DNA of 64,000 bases, from contig JBGSVA010000041.1 in NCBI GenBank assembly GCA_041753155.1, positions 7,583-71,582 on the forward strand, given 5' to 3'. The DNA is from Thermodesulfobacteriota bacterium (GTDB lineage Bacteria > Desulfobacterota_D > UBA1144 > Nemesobacterales > UBA2774). Below the pieces are notes generated by a model. That model did not search any database. It was given only the letters and a program-made list of their open reading frames with translations, and was not told the origin of the DNA. The position numbers and the translations under genes were made by a program. Positions 1,672 to 30,247 of this stretch are shown here, piece by piece; positions within the stretch are counted from its first letter, which is position 1, and each line of letters opens with the position of its first letter.

Positions 1672-4053
1672 ATGTTCGGATTGATAAAAAAATATACGAG
1701 GTGGCTCCACACCCAGTGGCCTGCGGGAATAGTGGAGAAGCTGCCGGAGGTAAAAGAGGACTACTCGACCAACGTCCCCGGTCTCTACATAGCCGGAGAC
1801 CTCACGGGGATACCGCTCCTGAAATTCTCCTCCGATTCGGGCGCCAGGGCTGTGATGAACATACTCATGGACGAGGGGTTCCTCAAAAGCCGTGAGGCGC
1901 TCAGGGATGGCGGCATACTCGACCTCGTGATAGTCGGGGCCGGTGTCTCGGGAATGGCGGCCGCGCTCGAAGCGAAGAGAAACGGGCTCAGGTTCGAGAT
2001 ACTCGAAGCGACCGAGCCCTTTTCAACCATCGTAAATTTCCCGAGAGGGAAGCCCATATACACATACCCGACGGACATGGTCCCTGCCGGAGACCTCCAG
2101 TTCACGAAGGACGTAAAAGAGCCCCTTGTCGAGGAGATAAAGGAAGAGACGCTCGGGAGAGGCATACAGCCGAAAATCCAGAGGGTCGAGAAGGTCGTCA
2201 ACAGGGGCGGTTTCATCGAAGTAGTAATCCCCAATGCCGAGAGCCTAAAGGCGCTGCGGGTGATAGTGGGCATCGGTCGCTCCGGCAACTTCAGGATGCT
2301 CGGCGTGCCCGGTGAGGACAAGGACAAGGTCTTCAACAGGCTCCACGACCCCAAGGACTACGAGGGCAAGAACGTCCTCGTCGTGGGCGGGGGGGACAGC
2401 GCTCTCGAAACGTCGATAGCGATAGCGAAGGCGGGCGGGAACGTAACCCATTCATACAGGAACGAGGAGTTTTCCCGTCCCAAGCCCGAGAACGTGGAAT
2501 ACATAAAGATGCTGATGGCAGACCCGATGGCGGAAGTCTCCGTCGAAACTCCGACGTCAGAGCGCGTAACGACGAGCACGGGCGGATTCATGCCGGGAGA
2601 GCACAAGCCCGGGAAGCTCAGCCTCATGATGAAGAGCCGCGTGAAAAACATAGGGGATACAGACGTCACACTCACAGACCGCGAGGGTAAAGAGATCACT
2701 ATCCCCAACGACGCGGTCTTTACCATGATAGGGCGCGAGGCCCCGCTCGATTTTTTCAGGAGAAGCGGCGTGAGAATCAAGGGCGAGATGGGCGCCAAGT
2801 CCATAACCGCCATGGTCCTCTTCCTTCTGTTCATGACTTTCATTTACAACTGGAAGGCGGGGGGCCCGCTGACGAAACTCTTCGAGAAGAATAATTGGTT
2901 CCCGTTCAACCTGCCGGGGTTCTTCAATAGCTTCGGAGAATCATTCACCGGCATGGTGAACGACCCTTCGACCCTCGTCGGGACACTTTCGATAACATTG
3001 AGCGAGCCCGGATTCTATTATTCGCTTCTGTATACGACCATAATCATAATCTTCGCCATTCTCCGCATAAGGAGGAGAAAGACGCCCTACATTACCGTAC
3101 AGACGATCTCTCTCGCAACGTTCCAGCTGATACCGTTATTTCTCCTGCCGTACATACTGCTCCCCTATCTCGGACACAACGGATTCTTCGACTCGGGGTT
3201 CATGAAGTCGGTCGGCGACGCACTCTTTCCCGCGGCGAATTACGGGCACGGCCGGGAGTACTGGCGGGCGTTCGGATTCATACTGGCGTGGCCGCTCTTC
3301 GTATGGAACGTATTCAGCAGCGAGCCCCTCTGGACCTGGCTGATTATCAGCCTGATTCAGACCTTTGTGCTGATCCCGCTCATAATTTACTTCTGGGGCA
3401 AGGGGGCGTACTGCGGGTGGATATGCTCTTGCGGGGCGATGGCCGAGACACTCGGCGACACGCAGCGCCACAAGATGCCCCACGGGGCCAGGTGGAACAG
3501 GCTCAACATGGTGGGGCAGATAATACTGGCGATCGCATTCATAATACTGATAGCCCGGGTATTGAGCTGGGGGTTTCCGAGCTCCGCGTTCGGACAATGG
3601 GTCTACAAATTCTACGAAGGAGCGTTTTACGGCTGGAAGCCCTTCGGCATCGAGCTTAACTACAAGTACGTAGTCGACCTCGTACTCGCCGGCATAGTCG
3701 GGTACGGGCTCTATTTCTGGTACAGCGGCAGGGTATGGTGCAGGTTCATGTGCCCGCTCGCCGCGCTTATGCACATATACGCGAGGTTCAGCCGCTTCGG
3801 GATCTTAGCCGACAAGAAGAAATGCATATCGTGCAACGTATGCACGTCTGTATGCCACCAGGGGATAGACATAATGAACTTCGCGAACAAGGGCCTCCCG
3901 ATGAGCGACCCCGAATGCGTCCGGTGCAGCGCGTGTGTCCAGTCCTGCCCCACGGGCGTGCTCATGTTCGGGCAGATAGACAGGAAGAGCGGAAGGGTTA
4001 TAAAAATCGACTCCCTCGCCGCCTCTCCCGTTCTTATGAGAGAAGGGAAATGA
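1672..4053 (+). CDS. Fusion protein. An FAD/NAD(P)-binding pyridine nucleotide-disulfide oxidoreductase domain is followed by a polytopic membrane domain and a NapH/NosR-type 2x[4Fe-4S] ferredoxin module.
   Basis: GAGGAG RBS 5 nt upstream. Two GxGxxG dinucleotide folds (LVIVGAGVSGMAAA, VLVVGGGDSALE). Long hydrophobic stretches. CGWICSCG motif plus CISCNVCTSVC and CVRCSACVQSCP ferredoxin motifs. Confidence 0.65.
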   Translation: MFGLIKKYTRWLHTQWPAGIVEKLPEVKEDYSTNVPGLYIAGDLTGIPLLKFSSDSGARAVMNILMDEGFLKSREALRDGGILDLVIVGAGVSGMAAALEAKRNGLRFEILEATEPFSTIVNFPRGKPIYTYPTDMVPAGDLQFTKDVKEPLVEEIKEETLGRGIQPKIQRVEKVVNRGGFIEVVIPNAESLKALRVIVGIGRSGNFRMLGVPGEDKDKVFNRLHDPKDYEGKNVLVVGGGDSALETSIAIAKAGGNVTHSYRNEEFSRPKPENVEYIKMLMADPMAEVSVETPTSERVTTSTGGFMPGEHKPGKLSLMMKSRVKNIGDTDVTLTDREGKEITIPNDAVFTMIGREAPLDFFRRSGVRIKGEMGAKSITAMVLFLLFMTFIYNWKAGGPLTKLFEKNNWFPFNLPGFFNSFGESFTGMVNDPSTLVGTLSITLSEPGFYYSLLYTTIIIIFAILRIRRRKTPYITVQTISLATFQLIPLFLLPYILLPYLGHNGFFDSGFMKSVGDALFPAANYGHGREYWRAFGFILAWPLFVWNVFSSEPLWTWLIISLIQTFVLIPLIIYFWGKGAYCGWICSCGAMAETLGDTQRHKMPHGARWNRLNMVGQIILAIAFIILIARVLSWGFPSSAFGQWVYKFYEGAFYGWKPFGIELNYKYVVDLVLAGIVGYGLYFWYSGRVWCRFMCPLAALMHIYARFSRFGILADKKKCISCNVCTSVCHQGIDIMNFANKGLPMSDPECVRCSACVQSCPTGVLMFGQIDRKSGRVIKIDSLAASPVLMREGK

Positions 4054-8050: not shown

Positions 8051-10282
8051 CTAGGCTTTAGAAGCCGCGAGCCCGGTCCCCGGAGCCTCCTCCGCTATGT
8101 TTATCCCGCTGATCGAGACCGTTATCTTATGCAGGGAGGCAAGCACCGTATCGACGCTCGCAGCAACGAGCACGTCTTTTTCCAGGTCCTCGAGCGGGAA
8201 CTGTTTCCAGAACCCGGTCTCACGAAACTCCTGTCTGTGCTCTTGTATCTGCAGGGTTAACTGCAGCGCCGCAGGCGCCGGATCGTCTTTGGTGTAGAAT
8301 TGCCGCGAAACCCTGTCGAACAATCCGCAGAGCGCACTGTAATCGGGACCCATGTGTTCGAGGTATTTTATCAATAGCGGATTGTTTGCTTCCGAGTACA
8401 TGGTTTTTTTCAGTGTCTCGAGCTCCGCGTAGATAACTTCGAGCGACTCGATTATGTCTACGAAGTCCTCGGCGTGGAGCTTCTCGTCGCTGATGATATA
8501 CTGGGCGTCGAAAAGCAGCGAGCTGCTCGTGGGCATGGCCGCGGCGAGCGGGTTCACGAGGGATTCTATCCTGCCCTTCTCGCTCTCGTCTAACATCAGG
8601 AGCTTGCCGAATATAGTCCCGCTGATCGCTATCGCGGACGATATCTTCTTTTTGAGCTCGCGATAAGGACTGACGGGCCAGATATTGTGCAGCACGAGAA
8701 GGCCGATAGCTGACGCCATGAGCAGGGCGAACATCCTCATCATTGCGAGCGTGAGGCTTATCTCGGGCCCCGGGCTCGAGAGAAAAACGTAGGGGAGCAT
8801 TAAACCCGCCTGGAGACCTGAGTAAGCTATTCTCTGGCTGCCGCTGGCGACATAGGCGGAGACAAAAGTCCCCAACGCGAAAATAAGTATGAGCAATAAG
8901 AAATGAGGTATGAGCGAGATTGCAAATAGACCTGTTATGCCGTAGAGGAGACCTGCGCCCACACCTACGATAGCGAGCTTACCCCGGAGGTGGGCCTGGC
9001 CGGTATTCGGTATAGAGCCGAAGAGCACGCCGTAAAAAGAGGCCTGATAACCGCCCGGCAGTTTCAGTAGAAGCTCGCCGAAGAGAAGAAGCATGATCAC
9101 TATCACTGATTTTACGGACTGGCGGGCCGATTCCCTGGTGATTTGAGGCAGCCATCCGGATTTTATGCTCTCCACAGTGGGAGACCTGGTAACCCTGTCA
9201 CTCACGAGCTTATCATATTCGCCGCTGTTGACCAGATTCCACGTCCTGCCTGCTTTACCGAGAATTTCGAGCGTGTCTTCGAACAAGGGAAGTATGGCTC
9301 CGAAAGCGAGCAGGTCCTCGAAATAGTCCTGGTCTTTCCCTTCCGCCGAATGCATGGCTTCATAGAGATTCTTCAGCTCCCCGATTTTTGTTCCGAGATT
9401 GTCCTGATACGACCCGGCAGAACGGACTTCGACAATAGCTGAAGCCAGGTCTGTAAAACCCTCAGACAATAAAGCGAACAGACCGTTTAACTCGTCCGAA
9501 ACATTTTTATCCTCCAGGCATTTGTGCCCGGCTCTCATAAACCCGTCCAGAACGTCGAGCTTGATATAAATGCTCTTGGCATAGGCGACGAGCATAAGCA
9601 CAGGCTCCGCGTGGAAGCTGCCGCCCCTCGCCTCGCGCTCGGTACGCCTGACGAGATTGACCAGGTTATTGAAAACATCCATGGACGCAGATTCGAATTT
9701 CCCGTCCTTCGCTTCTTGCGTTTCAGTGCGGATATAGGACTCGAACTTCGCGGCATAATCTTTATATACTGTGGACAGTGTAAGACAGAGGGCTCCGCCG
9801 CTCCTGTGTGGCCATATTATCTCGTCGACGAGCCACGAGACAGCCGCGGCGACGAATAGCTGAACCATGTAATTTTCTACGGAGGCCGTTGTCTGGGCCA
9901 CCGTGCCGAAAACCGCGACGAACATGCTCATGGCTGTCAGGATAGCGCTCAGCACCGAGGCGATGGGGTATTTACCGATGAAAGTTATACAGCCGAATAT
10001 CCATACCGCCGCAAGTATGAGGTAAACCGGAATCGAATCGAGAAAATAGTAGATTATGAATAACGAATAGATGCCGCTCACGAGGCACCCTATCAGCGAC
10101 TGGACGCCGACCTCGAACGTCTTACCGTGATAGCCTGCCATAATCATGTAAAGTATCACGGGGGCTAGAAATCCCGACGGGAGATGGAAGAAATTGCAGA
10201 TAAGGGCCGCGATTACGCCGCCGAGCGTAATCTTGAGCGCGATCTTGACGCGGAACACGGAGAGATAATGTTTAAGGTCCAT
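8051..10282 (-). CDS. FUSC-family (fusaric acid resistance / AaeB-like) efflux membrane protein, paralogue 1
   Basis: Two hydrophobic 6-TM blocks are separated by a long cytoplasmic domain. The architecture and length match the FUSC family. Confidence 0.7.
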   Translation of the reverse strand: MDLKHYLSVFRVKIALKITLGGVIAALICNFFHLPSGFLAPVILYMIMAGYHGKTFEVGVQSLIGCLVSGIYSLFIIYYFLDSIPVYLILAAVWIFGCITFIGKYPIASVLSAILTAMSMFVAVFGTVAQTTASVENYMVQLFVAAAVSWLVDEIIWPHRSGGALCLTLSTVYKDYAAKFESYIRTETQEAKDGKFESASMDVFNNLVNLVRRTEREARGGSFHAEPVLMLVAYAKSIYIKLDVLDGFMRAGHKCLEDKNVSDELNGLFALLSEGFTDLASAIVEVRSAGSYQDNLGTKIGELKNLYEAMHSAEGKDQDYFEDLLAFGAILPLFEDTLEILGKAGRTWNLVNSGEYDKLVSDRVTRSPTVESIKSGWLPQITRESARQSVKSVIVIMLLLFGELLLKLPGGYQASFYGVLFGSIPNTGQAHLRGKLAIVGVGAGLLYGITGLFAISLIPHFLLLILIFALGTFVSAYVASGSQRIAYSGLQAGLMLPYVFLSSPGPEISLTLAMMRMFALLMASAIGLLVLHNIWPVSPYRELKKKISSAIAISGTIFGKLLMLDESEKGRIESLVNPLAAAMPTSSSLLFDAQYIISDEKLHAEDFVDIIESLEVIYAELETLKKTMYSEANNPLLIKYLEHMGPDYSALCGLFDRVSRQFYTKDDPAPAALQLTLQIQEHRQEFRETGFWKQFPLEDLEKDVLVAASVDTVLASLHKITVSISGINIAEEAPGTGLAASKA

Positions 10283-10329
10283 TGATTATCTACGGGGCGG
10301 CAGAACGGTCATTCATTTCCAGATCCGTT

Positions 10330-12579
10330 TCAGCGCGCCCCGGCGAATTTGTAATCATTAGCGGATCGATCGCTTTCATCGATTTCATTCACCGCGTGCG
10401 AGATCGTGGCAATTGATCCCAGTATCCCGTCTATCCCGGTAAGGACGAGAGAAAACCTTTCGAGCTCCTCGCTCCCGTATGCAAACGTCGCCCTCCTGGA
10501 CCTGAATTCGTCTCTGGCTTTGCGAATTTCCTCGACGACCGCGACCGTGTCCTGCGAGCCTGCAATTTTACCCGGACTCACGAGCTTCGATGCCGCATCG
10601 GCGAAGCAATCCGTCATTTTCTCGTAATGTCCGCCCATGTACTCCATATACTTGTCGATCAGACTCTGGTCAGGCCCCTCATATATAGCGCGCTTGAGTG
10701 ATTCCGACTCGACGTATATCTTTTCGAGGGACTCGATGATCGTAAGGTACTGGCCTGCGTGCTTATAATCGCCGAACAGTATATATCCCGCATCTTTAAG
10801 AAGCGCGGAGCTCGAGGGGAGCTTCGACTCCAGGGAATCTATTTCCCGGCCGAGCTCCTCCATGTCTCCGGCCCTGCGTCCCAGAATAAGATTAAGTATA
10901 AGACCGGAGTCGGAGATCGCTGCCGACAATTTTTGTTTCAATAACTTTATCGGGTCCTGAGGCCATATGAAATGAAGGACAAATAAAACGACCAGGCAGC
11001 CCAGTATGATCCCGAGGAACCTGTCGAGAGCCAGGTTCAATGACACGGGAGGTCCGTTCGTTATAAGAAGCGACAGGGGCAGGACCAGACCCGCCTGTAC
11101 CCCCGCATAAGAAACCCTTTCGCTCCCGAGCGCAACGTAAGTCGCGAGGAAAAGGCCGAGAAAGAGGAGCATCACGAGTATCGGCATGTGGGGGGACTGG
11201 CTCAATATGTATAGACCCGCGAGTCCGTATAATCCGCCGAAGAGACACCCGAGAAACCTCAGCCTGGCTTTCAGGTGGGACATCCCCAGATTAGCCTGGT
11301 AGGAGATAACGAGGATCGTAATAATCGCCGAAAGCCCCACACCGGACGGAAGCGAGAGATACAGATACCCGAACACTATGACCATCACAGCCAAACCCGT
11401 CTTTATCCCTTTCTTGAGACTCTCGATATTGAGTTTAAATTCCCGCCGTGCAATATATGACCCATCTTTCGGCGGGGCTGATAGTGGTCGAGGGGATTCA
11501 CTGGAAACGATATGGGACTGAATCGCCCTCCATGCCGCCGAGATCTCATCAAGGTCTTCAGCCGCATTTTTCAGGAGACTGATAAAAGAACCGAGCTCGA
11601 GGACTTCCTCATATTCCCAGTCCGAGAAAGCCGCTTCCTTCCTCATGGCGATATATTTTTCTTCGAGTGCGCGCAGCCTTTCATGTATTTCGCCTCCCCC
11701 GTATTCGAAGGAGCTCTTTCTCAGGATCGAATCTTCGAGGTCGGAAAAGGTGCTCTCCGTGGCTTCGAGAACTCCGTAGATTCCCGACGACAGCTCGCCT
11801 TCGGATAAAAACGGCGCGTCCTTATGCAGCATTACGTCGATCGATTCGAGCTTTACGAAGAGGCTCTTCGAATGCGCGATTAATTTAATGTACAGGTCGC
11901 CGGGAAAGAGCCCTTCTCTCTCTTCTTTTTCCGCACGCGTTATCAGAGAGGAGATGCTGCTAATAGTGTCGAGCGTAAGCCTATTCCTGACCGGCCCGGG
12001 GCTCTCGCCTTCCTTCGCTTTCGAAATGAGGGCGTGAACGGTATCCCTGAACCCGCCTGCGACTCTGGACATGCTCTCCTTTATGGATGTCAATGTTTTC
12101 GGAGGCCATAGTAAATAGTCGATCAGCCAGACGACGAGGACGCCCAACGCTATCTGTATTATCCAGTCGACGGTCAAAGCCTCCGCGGCGCCGATGGAAA
12201 CGAGCCCGGTGTACATCACGCCCGCGGTCGCTACCGAGACCATCAGCGACGCGTATGAAAACTTTTGTTCGACGTAAAGGTATGTGCTGAGACACAGCCA
12301 GAAAAAGATGGTAAACAGATACAAGGGCAGCATGTTGTGAAAAATGTATACCGATATAAGGCCTATTACGGCGCCTAAAGAGCGCCCGAGCCATCTCTCG
12401 ATCCCCTGCTCGAAGGTATTGTCCCTGTGCACGGTCATCATGATGTGCACGGTCATAACCGCGAAATAGGGCGCCGGTATATGGAGGAACGCGCTCAGTA
12501 TCACACAGAGAGACCCCGCAAGGGCGACCTTGAGCGAATGCCTTACCCTGTAGGATTTGATATGCTCCTCGATTGTCAT
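10330..12579 (-). CDS. FUSC-family efflux membrane protein, paralogue 2, in tandem with paralogue 1
   Basis: Same architecture as paralogue 1 and alignable by eye (HSLKVALAGSL.. versus KIALKITLGGV..). Confidence 0.7.
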   Translation of the reverse strand: MTIEEHIKSYRVRHSLKVALAGSLCVILSAFLHIPAPYFAVMTVHIMMTVHRDNTFEQGIERWLGRSLGAVIGLISVYIFHNMLPLYLFTIFFWLCLSTYLYVEQKFSYASLMVSVATAGVMYTGLVSIGAAEALTVDWIIQIALGVLVVWLIDYLLWPPKTLTSIKESMSRVAGGFRDTVHALISKAKEGESPGPVRNRLTLDTISSISSLITRAEKEEREGLFPGDLYIKLIAHSKSLFVKLESIDVMLHKDAPFLSEGELSSGIYGVLEATESTFSDLEDSILRKSSFEYGGGEIHERLRALEEKYIAMRKEAAFSDWEYEEVLELGSFISLLKNAAEDLDEISAAWRAIQSHIVSSESPRPLSAPPKDGSYIARREFKLNIESLKKGIKTGLAVMVIVFGYLYLSLPSGVGLSAIITILVISYQANLGMSHLKARLRFLGCLFGGLYGLAGLYILSQSPHMPILVMLLFLGLFLATYVALGSERVSYAGVQAGLVLPLSLLITNGPPVSLNLALDRFLGIILGCLVVLFVLHFIWPQDPIKLLKQKLSAAISDSGLILNLILGRRAGDMEELGREIDSLESKLPSSSALLKDAGYILFGDYKHAGQYLTIIESLEKIYVESESLKRAIYEGPDQSLIDKYMEYMGGHYEKMTDCFADAASKLVSPGKIAGSQDTVAVVEEIRKARDEFRSRRATFAYGSEELERFSLVLTGIDGILGSIATISHAVNEIDESDRSANDYKFAGAR

Positions 12580-12623
12580 CCAGATTCAGATTATCACACG
12601 CGGCGCCAAAACATGTCAAACTG

Positions 12624-12653
12624 TTGACAAAACCTCGATACTGATGGGATAAT
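12624..12653 (+). promoter_or_regulatory. Sigma70-like promoter (TTGACA-N18-GATAAT) for the downstream membrane-protein gene
   Basis: TTGACA at 12624-12629 and GATAAT at 12648-12653. The -10 overlaps the first ATG of the ORF track, which argues the real start is the ATG at 12706. Confidence 0.45.
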
Positions 12654-12705
12654 GGCTTCATTACGAGCATTTGCAGGCCGATATCACAATAACCCGGGGA
12701 AAAAC

Positions 12706-13539
12706 ATGATAATACCGGATACGATGACTGGGGGCGCGCTTGTCCTCTGGTACATACTCACCGCGGCGTCGCTCGTCTTCCTAATATACGACCTCGAGAC
12801 GAATACCCCTGCCCAGTGGGTGATGAAGCTCGCCTGGATATTGATAGTCCTCTACACGGGTCCCCTCGGGCTTTTTATATACATGCTCTCCTGCCGGGAG
12901 CCCCTTCCGGGGACGCACGACGCATTCATTGCGCCTCACTGGAAGCAGTCCGTGGGCTCTCTCATGCACTGCGTCGCGGGGGACGCGACCGGGATCATAT
13001 TGGGCGCAATCGTCACGTACCATCTCGCTCTCCCTAACGGCATAGACCTGATAATCGAATACGCGGCCGCTTTCGTCGTGGGGCTCCTCATATTCCAGGC
13101 CCTGTTCATGAAATCCATGGCCGGGGGGAACTACCTGGAAGCCGTAAAAAAGACGTTCTTCTCCGAGACCGTATCGATGAACTTCGTAATGGTCGGCATG
13201 ATCCCCGTGATGGCGATAATGAGGATGAAGATACCGGGCGGGGACGACCCGAAGGGCCTCATGTTCTGGGGGATATCCGCAATTGCGACGATAGCGGGGG
13301 CGATAACCGCGTACCCTGTAAATTCCTGGCTCGTCGGGAGCGGGCTCAAGCACGGGATGATGTCGGCCGTATCGGGCAAGCCTTCGATGGAGGGAATGCC
13401 CGGAATGCCGGGAGATATGAAGCATAAAACCCCGCATGTGACGTTCATGAAAAAACTGGGCGTGTTTTTCCTATCGGCGGGGTTTCTTCTGGCAGCCGTA
13501 TGGATTACGTCGCAGTTCATCGAACTTAAGCTTCGCTGA
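12706..13539 (+). CDS. Integral membrane protein (DUF4396-like). The ORF-track start at 12652 is probably too far upstream.
   Basis: Multiple TM helices. The start is chosen at MIIPDTM, downstream of the putative promoter. Confidence 0.5.
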   Translation: MIIPDTMTGGALVLWYILTAASLVFLIYDLETNTPAQWVMKLAWILIVLYTGPLGLFIYMLSCREPLPGTHDAFIAPHWKQSVGSLMHCVAGDATGIILGAIVTYHLALPNGIDLIIEYAAAFVVGLLIFQALFMKSMAGGNYLEAVKKTFFSETVSMNFVMVGMIPVMAIMRMKIPGGDDPKGLMFWGISAIATIAGAITAYPVNSWLVGSGLKHGMMSAVSGKPSMEGMPGMPGDMKHKTPHVTFMKKLGVFFLSAGFLLAAVWITSQFIELKLR

Positions 13540-13573
13540 TACTATTGAGGCCGGTCCGCATAACCCCGGCGAA

Positions 13574-14245
13574 TTGCATGCTAGAATTACTTCAATGGTC
13601 AAAGGCAACACACTCGAAGAATTGAAATCCGAATATGCCCGCAGGAAGGACACGATCGAGGCGCAGCTCGGTGAGTTCAGGAAGATACGCGAGAGTGCCG
13701 ACGACAGGAAGATATTCGAAGAGCTCGCGTACTGCATCCTGACGTCCGCCGTAGGGCCTAAGGTCGGTCTCAAATCGCTCGAAGCGATAAGAGATATTCT
13801 TCTCGACGGGACGGCGGAGTACACCGAAAGTACACTAAAAGGTATCCATAAGTACCCCGAAAAAGCATATTTTATCGTCCACACGCGCGAATACCTTAAA
13901 AAGGAATACGGTTTCAAGCTCCGGGAGCTCGTCGATTCGTTCCCGGGCCCCGAGGAAAGGAGGGACTTCTTCGCGCTGAATAAAGATATAAAGGGACTCG
14001 GCTATACGCAGACGAGCCATTTTCTGAGGAACATCGGATTCCAGGGGTATGCCATACTCGATAAAAACGTCATTAAATCGCTCTACGATTTAGGTATAAT
14101 AGACTCCCCGAAGCCGCCTTCGACCGGAAAGAAGTACAAGGAGATAGAAGACAGGATGAAATCTTTGGCCGGTGAGCTCGGAATAGGTCTCGACGAGCTC
14201 GACATGCTCCTCTGGAGCCTCAAAACCGGACGAATACCCATATGA
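13574..14245 (+). CDS. ogg: N-glycosylase/DNA lyase (Ogg2-type 8-oxoguanine DNA glycosylase, HhH-GPD). The start is TTG at 13574 or ATG at 13595.
   Basis: HhH-GPD region LNKDIKGLGYTQTSHFLRNIG and an overall Ogg2-like sequence. Confidence 0.7.
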   Translation: MHARITSMVKGNTLEELKSEYARRKDTIEAQLGEFRKIRESADDRKIFEELAYCILTSAVGPKVGLKSLEAIRDILLDGTAEYTESTLKGIHKYPEKAYFIVHTREYLKKEYGFKLRELVDSFPGPEERRDFFALNKDIKGLGYTQTSHFLRNIGFQGYAILDKNVIKSLYDLGIIDSPKPPSTGKKYKEIEDRMKSLAGELGIGLDELDMLLWSLKTGRIPI

Positions 14246-15318
14246 CGCTGATATTTTTCGCAATCGGAATTATTATTCTGATCGCGGGCGCCGAGGCCCT
14301 GATAAGAGGGGCGTCGAGGCTCGCTTCCACGGTAGGAATATCCCCCCTCGTAGTCGGCCTGACAGTGGTCGCGTTCGGGACGAGCTCTCCCGAGCTCGCA
14401 GTGAGCGTAATCGCAAGCGTGAACGATAAGGCGGATATCAGCCTCGGCAACGTAATCGGAAGCAACATCTTAAACGTGCTCTTCATTCTGGGCTTATCCG
14501 CAGTCATAGTCCCCCTCGCCGTATCGCGGCAAATCATCAGGTTAGACGTCCCAATTATGATCATCTGCTCGGTCCTCGTGCTCCTCATGGGGCTCGACGG
14601 GAGCATCAGCCGGACGGACGGTATACTTTTTACGGCGGGTATTGTTGCATATACAACCTTCTTAATACTGCAGAGCAGAAAAGAAAAGGAGAGGCCTTCA
14701 GACGAGTTCGTAAAGGAATACAAAGCAAACGGGAAAAAAACGCTCCTCATCGACATTGCGCTCGTAGCGGCGGGTCTAGGGCTGCTCGTGCTCGGCTCGC
14801 GCTGGCTCGTGAACGGGGCAGTAATGATAGCGACTTACCTCGGATTGAGCGAGCTGATAATAGGGCTTACCATCGTAGCCGCGGGAACGTCTCTCCCCGA
14901 AGTCGCGACTTCAGTCATCGCCAGCATACGCGGGGAGCGGGACATAGCCGTGGGGAACATCGTCGGGAGCAATATATTCAATATTCTGGCAGTGTTAGGA
15001 ATCTCGAGCATAGCGGCGCCCGATGGGATCACGGTACCGGAATCGGCCCTGAGGTTCGACATACCGGTTATGACTGCCGTCGCAGTCGCCTGTCTGCCGA
15101 TCTTCTTCACGGGGAACGTGATCGCCCGCTGGGAAGGAAAACTCTTCCTGCTCTACTATGCGGCCTATACGACCTACATCGTGCTCGATTCGACCGACCA
15201 CTATTTCGAGAGGACCTTCGCTTTCGGGATGATCTGGTTCGTTATACCGCTCACCGCCATTACCCTCGCCGTACTGGTAATCCGTTCTATCCGGCGTAAC
15301 CGGAAGGGATATGCGTAA
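14242..15318 (+). CDS. Ca2+/Na+ antiporter, CaCA family (YrbG-like)
   Basis: Duplicated alpha-repeat motifs GTSSPELAVS and GTSLPEVATS. About 10 TM helices. Confidence 0.8.
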   Translation: MTLIFFAIGIIILIAGAEALIRGASRLASTVGISPLVVGLTVVAFGTSSPELAVSVIASVNDKADISLGNVIGSNILNVLFILGLSAVIVPLAVSRQIIRLDVPIMIICSVLVLLMGLDGSISRTDGILFTAGIVAYTTFLILQSRKEKERPSDEFVKEYKANGKKTLLIDIALVAAGLGLLVLGSRWLVNGAVMIATYLGLSELIIGLTIVAAGTSLPEVATSVIASIRGERDIAVGNIVGSNIFNILAVLGISSIAAPDGITVPESALRFDIPVMTAVAVACLPIFFTGNVIARWEGKLFLLYYAAYTTYIVLDSTDHYFERTFAFGMIWFVIPLTAITLAVLVIRSIRRNRKGYA

Positions 15319-15420
15319 CGGGGAGGCGCTTCCCATTTATCAGCGCACATTGTGTGTTGCTGATTCCGTGCATGTCGGGGAAAAAAAAGAGATTGCCGCG
15401 CTGAGCTCGCAGTCATAATT

Positions 15421-15710
15421 GTAGGAGCGGCTTCCAGCCGCGAATGGTAAAGACAAAGAAAAGGCAAGAATAATTCTCTTCTTTTCCTTGATGAAAAGAA
15501 GCAAAAATCATCCGACGCACATAATTTGCTAAAAATATCATATTAAGGCTAAAATCTTTCAATTCCACCCCATCCCTGAAAGATTTTCACGCCTTAATAA
15601 TCTATTTTCTTAACGCAAATTCTGTAATGTCGGGAAAGGAAAAAGATAGATTTCTCGCCTGCGGCTCGAAATGACAGATAAAATGAATCGCGGCTGGAAG
15701 CCGCTCCTAC
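15421..15710. repeat. Copy A of a structured intergenic repeat family. The core is ~15476-15637. It is bounded by perfect 23-bp terminal inverted repeats (gtaggagcggcttccagccgcga / tcgcggctggaagccgctcctac).
   Basis: The TIRs are exact reverse complements. The core is shared with copies at ~20728 and ~30088. Confidence 0.8.
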
Positions 15711-15737
15711 GGTTTATTATTGCCGCGTTCCGCATAA

Positions 15738-16406
15738 TCAGAGAGTGAGACCGATGAATACCTCGGCGTATTCCATTACCGTAATTCCGTCAGTCTCGTC
15801 GAAGACTGCCCTGTACCTGTTGAGACCCGTGATCCCACCGGTGTAATCCTTATAATCGATCTGGCTCTTGTGGGCGTCGATAGCTGCTGTTTTTAGGTGC
15901 ATTTGAAGCGATATGTCTTCGATCCTGTCGTAGGCCGGGAAAGGGGTCCAGACTTCGTAGCACCAGATCCCGGGCCGGACAGGCATTTCATCAGCCGGCA
16001 TACCCTTGATGGTTTCGAGCGCTATTGATGACACCGCCCTGTGTGTCGGGTGCTTGTCGATTTCCGGATGAGGCATATAAACCTCTTCGGGCTTGAACCT
16101 TCTTAACGCTACTCTCAGCTCCTTTTGAAAGTGATCCCTGTTTTCCCCGCTCTTCACGTCCCCGAGCCCGAGGAGTATCAGGTACTCGACGCCCAGAATA
16201 CCGACCGCTTCCCTGACCTCCGACTCCCGGAGCCGGGCGACCTCGTCCTCGCTGAGACCGTATACGCTCGTACTCCTCCTCCCGTCGGTCACGACGAGGG
16301 ACACGACGTCTATGCCGCTGTCGATAAGCTTGGCGGCCGTACCGCCCATGCCTATCTCCATGTCGTCGGGGTGGGGCGAAATTATGAGGACGTTCCTCTC
16401 CGGCAT
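15738..16406 (-). CDS. PIG-L/LmbE-family N-acetylglucosaminyl deacetylase (BshB-like)
   Basis: VLIISPHPDDMEIGMGGT and HxxH motifs. The start at MPERNVL has an AAGGA RBS; the longer ORF start lacks an SD sequence. Confidence 0.75.
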   Translation of the reverse strand: MPERNVLIISPHPDDMEIGMGGTAAKLIDSGIDVVSLVVTDGRRSTSVYGLSEDEVARLRESEVREAVGILGVEYLILLGLGDVKSGENRDHFQKELRVALRRFKPEEVYMPHPEIDKHPTHRAVSSIALETIKGMPADEMPVRPGIWCYEVWTPFPAYDRIEDISLQMHLKTAAIDAHKSQIDYKDYTGGITGLNRYRAVFDETDGITVMEYAEVFIGLTL

Positions 16407-16476
16407 GGCTTTAGTATTCCTTGACAATTCAATCTTATCAATCACCATTAATTTGTCTGAAAGGAGACCCGACGAA

Positions 16477-17943
16477 ATGGATTACGAACCGGTTATAGGG
16501 CTCGAGGTGCACGCGCAGCTCAAGACCAAGTCGAAAATATTCTCACCGGCCCCGACTGAGTTCGGCGCTCCGCCCAACTCCCAGGTCAACCCCATATGCC
16601 TCGGGATGCCGGGCGTGCTCCCTGTGCTGAACGGGAAGGCCCTGGAATACGCGGTGAAGGCCGCGCTCGCAGTCAACTGCGAGATACACGGCCGGTCCCG
16701 GTTCGCCCGGAAAAACTACTTCTACCCGGACCTGCCGAAGGGCTATCAGATTTCGCAGTACGAAGAGCCCTTTTCCACCGGGGGATGGCTCGACATCGGC
16801 GCAAACGGCGCGGCGAAGAAAATAAGGATAACCAGGATACACATGGAAGAGGACGCCGGGAAGCTCGTCCACGAAAACGCAGGCGGGTCGAGCTACGTCG
16901 ACCTCAACCGCGCCGGGGTCCCGCTCATCGAGATCGTGAGCGAGCCCGATATCGCGAGCGCCGAGGAAGCGGTGCTATATCTGAAAAAGCTCCGCTCGAT
17001 ACTGATGTATATAGGGGTGTGCGACGGCAACATGGAGGAAGGGAGCCTGAGGTGCGACGCTAACGTGTCCGTCCGTCCTAAGGGAAGCAAAACGCTCGGC
17101 ACTAAGGTCGAGATAAAGAACGTGAATTCGTTCAAGTTCATACAGAAAGCCATAGTGTATGAGATAAGGAGGCAGGTCTCGGTCATCGAAGGGGGCGGGA
17201 ATATAGTACAGGAAACGAGGCTGTTCGACGCCGACAAGGGCATCACATTTTCGATGAGGACGAAGGAGGAAGCGCACGACTACAGGTATTTCCCCGACCC
17301 CGATCTGCTGCCGGTCGTTATAGAGAAGGAGAAAATCGAAGAGCTGCGCGCGTCTCTCCCCGAATTGCCCGATCAGAGACTTATGCGATTTACGGAAGAG
17401 TATAAGCTCCCCGAGTATGACGCGTCCGTGCTTACGGCGTCGAAAGAGATCGCCGACTACTTCGAGAAATGCCTCGGCGCTTACAACAACCCGAAAGCGG
17501 TGAGCAACTGGATAATGACAGAAGTCATGAGAGAGCTTAAAGATGAAGATGAAATTAAGGATTTTTCTGTACCGCCTAAAATGGTCGCTGTGCTGGTTAA
17601 GTTTATAGACGACGGCACGATAAACCGTAATATGGCCAAGGAAGTATTTGGAGAAATGGTTACAAAAAAAATAATACTTACTGAAAAAATTGGATTCGAA
17701 GAGTCAATCAAAATAACCAGAGAAATAATCGAGGAAAAAGGGATAGAACAGATATCCGACAGAGGGGAGCTTGAAAATATCATATCCGGAATCCTTAAAG
17801 ACCACCCGGCGGAAATATCGAGGTATAAAGCGGGTGACGAGAAGCTTATAGGGTTTTTCGTCGGCAAGGTGATGAAAGCCACTCAGGGGAAGGCGAACCC
17901 GAAGGTCGTGAACGAGATATTGACCGCGGAGCTCTCGAAATAA
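16477..17943 (+). CDS. gatB: Asp-tRNA(Asn)/Glu-tRNA(Gln) amidotransferase subunit B
   Basis: MDYEPVIGLEVHAQL... is the canonical GatB N-terminus. AAAGGAG RBS upstream. The ORF-track N-extension is an artefact. Confidence 0.9.
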   Translation: MDYEPVIGLEVHAQLKTKSKIFSPAPTEFGAPPNSQVNPICLGMPGVLPVLNGKALEYAVKAALAVNCEIHGRSRFARKNYFYPDLPKGYQISQYEEPFSTGGWLDIGANGAAKKIRITRIHMEEDAGKLVHENAGGSSYVDLNRAGVPLIEIVSEPDIASAEEAVLYLKKLRSILMYIGVCDGNMEEGSLRCDANVSVRPKGSKTLGTKVEIKNVNSFKFIQKAIVYEIRRQVSVIEGGGNIVQETRLFDADKGITFSMRTKEEAHDYRYFPDPDLLPVVIEKEKIEELRASLPELPDQRLMRFTEEYKLPEYDASVLTASKEIADYFEKCLGAYNNPKAVSNWIMTEVMRELKDEDEIKDFSVPPKMVAVLVKFIDDGTINRNMAKEVFGEMVTKKIILTEKIGFEESIKITREIIEEKGIEQISDRGELENIISGILKDHPAEISRYKAGDEKLIGFFVGKVMKATQGKANPKVVNEILTAELSK

Positions 17944-20539: not shown

Positions 20540-20700
20540 GCACACTTCGTGTGCACTCAGGACAGGCGGGTTTGGCTTCATTGCTGGTTTGAGTAGGAGA
20601 GGGATGGAAAGATCATAAAACACACATTGTGTGTGTTCTTCTTTGTCTTGATGAACACACGTAGTGTGGTCTATGAACTACTGCACACACAAAGTGTGTT
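20540..20700. repeat. Cluster of four CACAC-N3-GTGTG mini-hairpins at 20540-54, 20619-37, 20656-68 and 20684-99. A partial repeat-core start is also present.
   Basis: Perfect short inverted repeats read directly. A fifth similar hairpin sits at ~15347-15365 next to copy A. Confidence 0.6.
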
Positions 20701-20727
20701 TTATGAAAAGACAACTACAAAATTATT

Positions 20728-20935
20728 TTCTTCTTTGTCTGGATACAAAGAAGCAAAAATCATCCGACTACATAATTTGCTAAAAATCTTGTGTTGAAGC
20801 TAAAATCTTTCAATTAGAAAGCTGAAAGATTTTTATACGCTTAAACACGCGATTTTCTTAACGCAAATTCTGTAATGTCGGGAAGAGAAAAGCAAAAGAT
20901 AGATTTCTCGCGCTGCTCGAAATAACAAGATAAAG
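20728..20935. repeat. Copy B of the structured intergenic repeat family (core 20728-20884 plus tail)
   Basis: About 85% identical to copies A and C. Substitutions in the stems are compensatory. Confidence 0.8.
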
Positions 20936-21074
20936 ATGATATTGCCGCGGTCCGCTAACTTCGTTTGCTGCACTCGCAACGACAGAATAAAGCTCCGTCC
21001 TTCGACAGGCTCACGACGAACGGTGTGGGGGATCACTTGTCGGACGGTGGTGGTAGGGTTGCTGCGCTGTTAAT

Positions 21075-29737: not shown

Positions 29738-30087
29738 ACGAGCCAACGCTGAACGTGATTCAGGGTTCAGGATGACTGAAATTATTGAGTGAAATGTAAC
29801 ACCCCCATCCTGACCTAATTTGGTTTAAGCAGCCTTGAGCCAGAAGTTAAGTTGCTTCGGCACCTTTGTTGGTAAGGCGACCTGTTGCTCATTTATTCGC
29901 AACAGTTCCCCCGCCTCGGGGGAAGGAATTAAAAGCTCAAAAAGATAAATTTCTCGTTTTGGTTTGTGCAGATCATATACGATGTCAATGCGAGTTATTT
30001 GCAATCAGCAAAGAGCGACCAATTCTTACGCTCGCTCAGAACTGTTGCTCGAAATGACAAAGAAAAGGCAAATATAGGCAACTATTA

Positions 30088-30247
30088 TTTCTTCTTTTCC
30101 TTGATGAAAAGAAGCAAAAATCATCCGACTGTACATAATTTGCTAAAAATCTTATGTTGAAGCTAAAATCTTTCAATTGGAAAGCTGAAAGATTTTCACG
30201 CTTCAACACGCGATTTTCTTAACGCAAATTCTGTAATGTCGGGAAAT
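30088..30247. repeat. Copy C of the structured intergenic repeat family. It is preceded (29935-30087) by head/tail fragments of the same family.
   Basis: Near-identical to copy A's core. The upstream flank shares aaaagataaatttctcg and gctcgaaatgaca...aagaaaaggcaa with the other copies. Confidence 0.8.

Follow-up and report, generated by a model that had tools for sequence, protein, structure and literature searches.

The segment considered here, positions 15421–15710 of the window (the whole 64 kb stretch of DNA that was analysed), sits in the 419-nt spacer of a convergent gene pair, formed by a Na+/Ca2+ exchanger gene on the left (14242–15318, + strand; Pfam Na_Ca_ex, E = 4.9e-65) and a PIG-L/LmbE-family deacetylase gene on the right (15738–16448, − strand; Pfam PIG-L, E = 2.6e-27). 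The sequence GTAGGAGCGGCTTCCAGCCGCGA occupies 15421–15443 and its reverse complement 15688–15710; a repeat search of the window agrees with the preliminary description that these two arms, each of 23 nt, are 100% complementary and that the segment which they bracket, with 244 nt between them, measures 290 bp in full. They are the only matches to the 23-mer in the 64 kb, even with three mismatches allowed, and no match arose in any of 100 dinucleotide-preserving shuffles of the window. A scan of the window for tRNA genes returned none.

The palindrome gcggct-N3-agccgc, noticed earlier within each arm, folds into a GCGGCT-TCC-AGCCGC hairpin, its stem 6 bp long and its loop 3 nt. The folding energy as DNA is −6.9 to −7.3 kcal/mol (z about −3.2), and the GTAGGA and the terminal GA of the arm are unpaired in the folds. 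The left arm (15421–15443, + strand) is composed, in order, of GTAG, GA, GCGGCT, TCC, AGCCGC and GA, with its GTAG tag at 15421–15424. The right arm (15688–15710) is the identical hairpin read GTAG-first on the − strand (tag at 15710–15707) and lies 27 nt past the PIG-L stop codon, so that the pair is oriented head-to-head (HH) with both GTAG ends outward. On the − strand the right arm is followed by a T-rich tail, GATTCATTTT, and was picked up by a terminator scan; the left arm has no T tract.

Three modules lie between the arms, all given here on the + strand. The purine-rich 'head', ATGGTAAAGACAAAGAAAAGGCAAGAATAATT (15444–15475), is loosely conserved, with a column identity of 0.4–0.8 over 78 copies; it is followed by the conserved core of an AT-rich palindromic family (15476–15634), which has its own inverted ends and two hairpins, and by an A-rich 'tail' (15635–15687; GATAGATTTCTCGC, GCTCGAAATGACAGATAAAATGAA), which aligns to 20887–20930 of a second window copy of the family (copy B) and to a related locus, L215. 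The earlier division of the bracketed DNA into head, core and tail is a fair description, but across 78 full-length copies strong conservation is limited to 15476–15634, the columns of the arms being occupied in 10–35%, and modules continue outside both arms. On the left, 15367–15420 (+ strand) combines a partial core 3′ end, GTGCATGTCGGGGAAAAAAAAGAG, with a linker, ATTGCCGCGCTGAGCTCGCAGTCATAATT; it has homologues at L198 843–885 and, in reverse-complement reading, in L034, and its ATGTCGGGG part is common to the orthologous spacers L237, L239 and L240, where it forms the left edge of the variable block. Just past the exchanger stop codon lies the palindrome ATCAGCGCACATTGTGTGTTGCTGAT (15339–15364, no strand assigned), which is of a CACA..TGTG module type recurrent in the mosaic and is conserved in L240. 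On the right, GGTTTATTATTGCCGCGTTCCGCATAA (15711–15737, + strand) reaches the PIG-L stop codon and is identical in L240/L241; its ATTGCCGCG.TCCGC part is also found in the hairpin-less L237 and beside the tail of copy B.

The 23-mer as a member of a dispersed hairpin family

The preliminary description had allowed for the 23-mer being confined to this locus; it is in fact abundant elsewhere, as a free-standing element. In a scan covering one genome per species, at least 115 genome stretches match the 21-nt pattern GTAGGAGCGGCTNNNAGCCGC; hosts among the matches listed include Pseudomonas, Thioalkalivibrio, Woeseiaceae, Xanthomonadales, Syntrophobacteraceae, Desulforhabdus, Verrucomicrobia and Chloroflexi, and close inverted pairs are frequent among them. 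Contigs of the window organism's relatives, 0.68 Mb in all, hold 89 GTAG hairpins, 68 of which are the exact 23-mer (60 distinct by their flanks). The stems of the variants co-vary (GCACCA/TGGTGC, GCGCCA/TGGCGC and GCGGCA/TGCCGC) and retain the fold of GCGGCT/AGCCGC, whilst GTAGGAGC and GCGA are invariant across the stem variants and a GA follows the stem in all. In these contigs the hairpins are mostly singletons, accompanied by 10 TT dimers (spacers of 19–28 nt, plus one of 365 nt) and 5 HH dimers, among them two with 13- and 30-nt spacers. For the nearest relatives, the contigs with the orthologous loci also carry the 23-mer at another place (L071 with L230; L034 with L231).

The identical 23-mer is present in 56 loci (L003–L114) from genomes labelled Gammaproteobacteria, Desulfobacterota, Poribacteria, Omnitrophota, Chloroflexi and others, labels for which contamination of metagenome-assembled genomes is possible; such multi-phylum identity is surprising if REP–RAYT systems are mainly vertical in their inheritance. 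A 29.7-kb contig, L239, terminates exactly on one of these hairpins (3931–3953), an assembly break typical of a dispersed repeat, and copies are therefore probably under-counted in short-read assemblies.

These properties identify the hairpins as REPs. A survey of the GTAG-tagged REP superfamily describes an unpaired terminal GTAG, a stem of 6–13 bp, a loop of usually 2–4 nt and an element length of 20–40 bp (PMC3733652); the arm has an unpaired GTAG, a 6-bp stem, a 3-nt loop and a length of 23 nt, and its family is high-copy, dispersed and extragenic, with subfamilies defined by stem variants (two copies fall in the 64 kb of the window). In the same survey, a dinucleotide between GTAG and stem together with a conserved motif on the opposite side is ascribed to GTAG-1 and GTAG-2 alone (Di Nocera, De Gregorio & Rocco 2013, PMC3733652), and the arm carries GA between GTAG and stem and a GA motif on the opposite side. 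By the textual description given there and by shared host taxa, the arms are GTAG-1-like, the numbered family being a provisional label with respect to the consensus. A scan of the arms against Rfam produced no meaningful match at gathering or at permissive thresholds.

Neither the window nor approximately 1.5 Mb of related fragments yielded a RAYT gene. The best tblastn match of E. coli RayT to the window and all loci had E = 0.44, a regular expression for RAYT motifs found no match in the window and related loci, and a Pfam scan of the genes that hairpin doublets enclose in Desulforhabdus L024 showed them to be unrelated to RAYT. The link to such an enzyme is therefore putative.

The setting of the arms also invites a functional reading, in which they are host-selected bidirectional terminators or mRNA-protecting hairpins that owe their identity to selection and not to membership of a repeat family. 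The spacer is indeed convergent, the right arm combines its position shortly past the PIG-L stop codon with a T-rich tail, and the survey reports most REPs downstream of genes, with a proposed function as RNA hairpins (PMC3733652). The left arm, however, is without a T tract, and a T-rich tail accompanies only 11 of the 60 distinct family copies (0 of 60 on the other strand). Hairpin orientation is independent of the direction of the flanking gene (33/60 versus 32/60), the GTAG side being the nearer to the flanking gene in 42/60. Moreover, an exact sequence common to dozens of unrelated loci and phyla is inexplicable by local selection, and the orthologous spacer of L237 has neither hairpin. 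We therefore regard terminator function as a very improbable explanation of the pair, although a role of the right arm as a local 3′ hairpin is plausible. The earlier suggestion of terminator hairpins in a convergent spacer that had trapped a repeat copy comes closer to the anatomy of the locus than a transposon does, but termination is no property of the family and only the right arm has the T-rich tail.

Orthologous spacers and hairpin junctions

In relatives retrieved through the exchanger gene the arrangement Ogg–exchanger–spacer–PIG-L is preserved, and their spacers can be compared with that of the window (419 nt; right arm, left arm and core all present). L240/L241 (exchanger 93.9% identical at the nucleotide level; spacer 218–219 nt) have the right arm with an identical outer flank, and neither left arm nor core. 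L239 (93.1%; spacer at least 376 nt) likewise has the right arm, on which the contig ends, with an inner flank as in L240, and lacks left arm and core. L237/L238 (94.7%; 248 nt) have no right arm, left arm or core, and the more distant L242/L243 (79.9%; 403 nt) have the core and no arms. The left arm is thus absent from all of the orthologous spacers compared (L237–L243), and the window and L240 part exactly at the inner (GCGA) edge of their common right arm. The presence of right arm, left arm and core differs from spacer to spacer, and the three components have therefore had separate histories at one site. The preliminary description had also envisaged orthologous loci with the same sequence and no insertion boundaries; the spacers of L237–L243 instead differ by whole modules.

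Paralogous sites give a similar view of each junction. When the 23-mer is excised in silico, the sequence around the right junction lines up, with a gap at that point, with copy B (20887–20955) and L215 3249–3314; at both of these hairpin-less sites the tail runs straight into ATTGCCGCG.TCCGC. The joint between tail and hairpin is also present in L034 7721–7765. On the left, the module of core 3′ end and linker joins the head directly, with no hairpin between, in L198 (843–935), as the linker does in window copy C; given the contiguity of linker and head in L198, the left arm looks inserted into pre-existing modules. The left junction itself (GCGA followed by ATGAC or ATGGT..AAAGAAAAGG plus the core) recurs in at least nine other loci with varied outer flanks. 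Comparisons of hairpin sites disagree on what arrives with the hairpin: L215 suggests a bare 23-nt insertion, L237 versus L240 a difference of ~48 nt, and sites of the L170 type an ATGAC repeat, and no single target-duplication rule fits all three.

These comparisons bear on a reading in which a close HH dimer of REPs (a REPIN) came first and was later split by insertion of the AT-rich element with head and tail. The outward GTAG orientation is that of HH dimers and REPINs, HH dimers with 13- and 30-nt spacers occur in related contigs, and insertion of IS and MITE elements beside REPs is known; DNA inserted between the partners is said in the GTAG survey to hide many dimers (PMC3733652). On the other hand, L240/L241 and L239 have the right arm in place in a spacer without a left arm, L237 has neither, and the L198 arrangement marks the left arm as an apparent insertion in its own right. 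In addition, each of the two close HH dimers of the lineage joins two unlike stem variants, but the members of the window pair are identical. A split REPIN is accordingly a distinctly unlikely origin for the pair.

Relatives retrieved through the PIG-L gene (79–89% nucleotide identity) have neither exchanger nor spacer and so provide no empty site for the element itself. The exchanger with its repeat-filled spacer (1,501 nt; window 14247–15747) is present in one sub-clade; in four relatives, L230 (3702–3755) and L231–L233, 12–54 nt stand in place of both, and Ogg and PIG-L are immediate convergent neighbours. The start codon of the exchanger overlaps the stop codon of Ogg (ATGA). Across window 12652–17943, identity to L237 and L240 is 91–95% on the Ogg/exchanger side and 86–87% on the PIG-L/GatB side, and this drop across the spacer suggests, at the level of sequence, that the repeat spacer may be a recombination junction. 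A further difference between relatives lies at window 10270–12586 (~2.3 kb, with a 749-aa FUSC-family ORF at 10330–12579, − strand), to which the 89%-identical relative L234 gave no BLAST match; ~157 nt (12417–12573) take the place of the segment there, and the closer L237/L240 have the 749-aa ORF.

The core family and its association with hairpins

The window holds three copies of the core: A (15476–15634), B (20726–20884) and C (30087–30245). As reported earlier, copies B and C (about 20721–20939 and about 30064–30246 in full) are present without arms, at 79–84% identity to A and with no 23-mer. All three lie between convergent genes. Scanned against metagenomes, a 22-mer of the AT-rich repeat matched 114 contigs (L116–L229), which together with the window and L034 contain 132 core copies; none of these contigs overlaps the unique DNA of the window. 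Copy B is kept at the orthologous site of the 89%-identical relative (L234 5720–5875, 92.5% identity), its flanks differing by whole-module indels (172 nt versus 83 nt on one side). The genes flanking cores are convergent in 18 cases, tandem in 31 and divergent in 8, by a crude analysis that is mildly informative.

The core comprises a 9-bp hairpin (15478–15501) and a long imperfect hairpin of ~40 pairs (15512–15633; z = −8.3), the base of which is formed by the core's own inverted ends (CCGAC..ACATAATTTGC and GCAAATTCTGTAATGTCGG). A joint fold of all 98 core copies was unsuccessful because subtypes with different inserts were mixed; covariation was therefore assessed in 47 copies of one subtype. 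In these, 98.2% of pair cells hold standard pairs, compared with 32–49% when the partners are slid by 1–3 columns, double compensatory changes occur in 11 of 45 pairs, and the covariation score was reached by none of 500 shuffles. The structure is thus conserved, and the core is a separate element with its own ends, not part of the arm family. It matched no Rfam family at gathering or permissive thresholds and could represent a new MITE or structured RNA family.

Core variants are themselves modular, with a CACAC..GTGTG palindrome, ~85 nt of extra sequence in the apical loop, or a terminator-like GC hairpin. In L133, L143, L151, L182, L185, L190, L208 and L218, ~110 nt replace part of the right arm of the long hairpin and end in a terminator-like hairpin, GCGGGCGCTTGCCCGC, followed by TTTTCTT; this sequence suggests a small, possibly transcribed insert within the core. 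The CACAC..GTGTG palindromes are a further recurrent module, seen at window 15339–15364 and 20620–20700 and in many related loci, where they stand after stop codons, beside the GCGA side of REP hairpins and inside cores.

A GTAG hairpin lies within 400 nt of the core in 32 of the 132 copies, at distances of −191 to −317 upstream and +59 to +376 downstream. For the 79 distinct cores with full flanks, a hairpin occurs upstream only in 11, downstream only in 12, on neither side in 55 and on both sides in one, which is the window copy; the single two-sided case compares with 1.97 expected under independence (Fisher p = 0.68, n = 79). A second arm–core–arm composite was found at none of the other 78 cores, and none of 17 close hairpin pairs elsewhere encloses a core.

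The preliminary description had treated the arms as termini of copy A and had offered a MITE-like unit as one reading: a 290-bp non-autonomous transposon with 23-bp terminal inverted repeats (TIRs) recognised by a transposase, which arrived in one piece. Its attractions are the perfect inverted ends, the recurrence of the left junction of hairpin, head and core at several loci, and the single-strand fold of the whole segment, in which the arms close one large structure (−116 kcal/mol, z = −8). Against it stand the singular occurrence of the two-sided arrangement, the inverted ends that the core possesses in its own right, and the orthologous right arm that occurs without the rest. The composite also has no direct repeat at its ends, where the flanks read ..CATAATT on the left and GGTTTATT on the right (AATT and GGTT at the respective edges); to our knowledge, Y1-type elements produce no target duplication, and its absence is a weak criterion. 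Taken as a whole, the segment 15421–15710 is not a mobile unit and the arms are not the ends of copy A. Transposition as one piece is already largely refuted and we consider it extremely improbable; what survives of the MITE-like proposal is that the arms belong to a mobile-type class of element, as separate REP hairpins.

Hairpins near cores obey an orientation rule. The GTAG end points away from the core in 12 of 13 upstream hairpins and 13 of 15 downstream ones, and on the inner GCGA side the neighbour is repeatedly drawn from a small set of modules, the outer side being mostly unique; the recurrent classes at inner flanks are head plus core, the CACAC..GTGTG palindrome, TGTCATTGCGAGC, and GATTCCCGAT..CGGGAATGACA. 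Transcription direction was considered as a cause of the rule and rejected, as orientation bears no relation to which way the flanking gene runs. Independent random insertion leaves the rule unexplained, which hints at a directed relationship between hairpin and module; the pattern suggests one of two processes, in which hairpins insert into particular modules in a set orientation or modules are inserted and exchanged at the GCGA edge. The second of these, in our judgement unlikely, holds that the inner GCGA side of the REP is in this lineage a preferred breakpoint at which modules, including the 160-nt element, are joined, swapped or carried along, by a route that might involve, for example, one-ended HUH-type cleavage and strand transfer. 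If so, the intergenic mosaic would be put together from its modules at REP hairpins, and cargo lying between two REPs could occasionally be mobilised by the pair.

Interpretation and comparison with known repeat systems

The arms are most probably two independently acquired GTAG-tagged REPs within a BIME-like mosaic that fills the convergent spacer, placed around a member of a different palindromic family. The apparent 23-bp TIR arises since two near-identical members of one family stand in opposite orientation, and does not denote transposon ends. A TIR-bounded unit repeated at multiple loci, as expected of a MITE, was not seen, and the pair differs from a REPIN, a short-spacer doublet present in many copies, in having a 244-nt spacer, in being unique and in the discordant presence patterns of its partners. 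What is seen is a set of REPs and a few recurrent non-REP motifs in varied arrangements, with orthologues that differ by whole modules; the components turn over independently of one another.

How such hairpins might move is suggested by analogy with characterised REP systems. A RAYT (TnpA-REP), which is a single-copy HUH tyrosine (Y1) transposase whose gene is typically flanked by the REPs, would spread or rearrange the hairpins on single-stranded DNA; it would recognise GTAG plus hairpin on one strand only and would cut at CT or CA dinucleotides beside the hairpin. In such systems, TnpA-REP binds the single-stranded REP hairpin and not its complement, relying on GTAG for recognition or guidance; its cuts fall on the REP strand only, at a CT (or CA) next to the hairpin, and permit strand transfer (PMC8266576). 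Hairpins transcribed at the 3′ end of a gene may, again by analogy, stabilise or end the mRNA.

Several consequences follow from the assignment of the arms to the REPs. A false lead is removed, as the perfect 23-bp pair marks no transposon here, and GTAG-tagged REPs are extended to an uncultured Thermodesulfobacteriota/'Dadabacteria' lineage. One orthologous spacer, compared among strains that are 80–95% identical, documents rapid gain, loss and exchange of hairpin modules. The by-products may prove more useful, namely a 160-nt palindromic family absent from Rfam and the orientation rule between REPs and modules, which is not predicted by current REP/RAYT models.

ERIC and MITE-like elements are multi-copy intergenic imperfect palindromes, and the core is likewise such a palindrome, of 120–160 nt with conserved inverted ends. 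It differs from them in its extra 5′ hairpin, in the inserts of its apical loop, in having no Rfam similarity and in that no target duplication was identified.

For the arms, the closest parallel in the GTAG survey is GTAG-1, in which TT dimers exceed HH dimers (PMC3733652). The family described here shares with it the excess of TT over HH, the occurrence as singletons and dimers, the extragenic location, subfamilies with complementary stems and a 3-nt loop, and the GTAG-1 hosts Pseudomonas, Thioalkalivibrio and Xanthomonadales are also among the 23-mer matches listed (PMC3733652). It differs in its Thermodesulfobacteriota/'Dadabacteria' host, a lineage outside the coverage of that survey (PMC3733652), and the window pair differs in its 244-bp spacer, compared with the usual 20–100 bp.

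Group 3 REPs are short perfect palindromes, for example of 23 nt with a 3-nt loop, or with two bases between GTAG and stem (Corneloup et al. 2021, PMC8266576). The arm resembles the group 3 REPtron REPs of S. maltophilia (Sm) and Marinomonas (Mb) in its 23-nt length, perfect palindrome, 3-nt loop and 2-base gap; its stem is of 6 bp, compared with 8 bp in Sm and 5 bp in Mb, and the arm is known here from its sequence (PMC8266576).

With the REPIN–RAYT system, the locus shares inverted REPs, outward GTAG ends and a population of near-identical copies (Bertels & Rainey 2011, PMC3116915; PMC3337134). REPINs, however, are short doublets whose two members replicate together, whereas the window doublet is unique, its partners have different histories and a RAYT was not found in the sequence searched. 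Unlike enterobacterial BIMEs and the intergenic mosaics of Neisseria, the mosaic here has companion modules of unrelated sequence, one of them a much larger structured palindrome of ~160 nt, and its REPs do not show the regular alternation of orientation seen in E. coli BIMEs; like both of those systems, it consists of REP hairpins interleaved with a few recurrent motifs in variable combinations (PMC2817692, PMC3733652).
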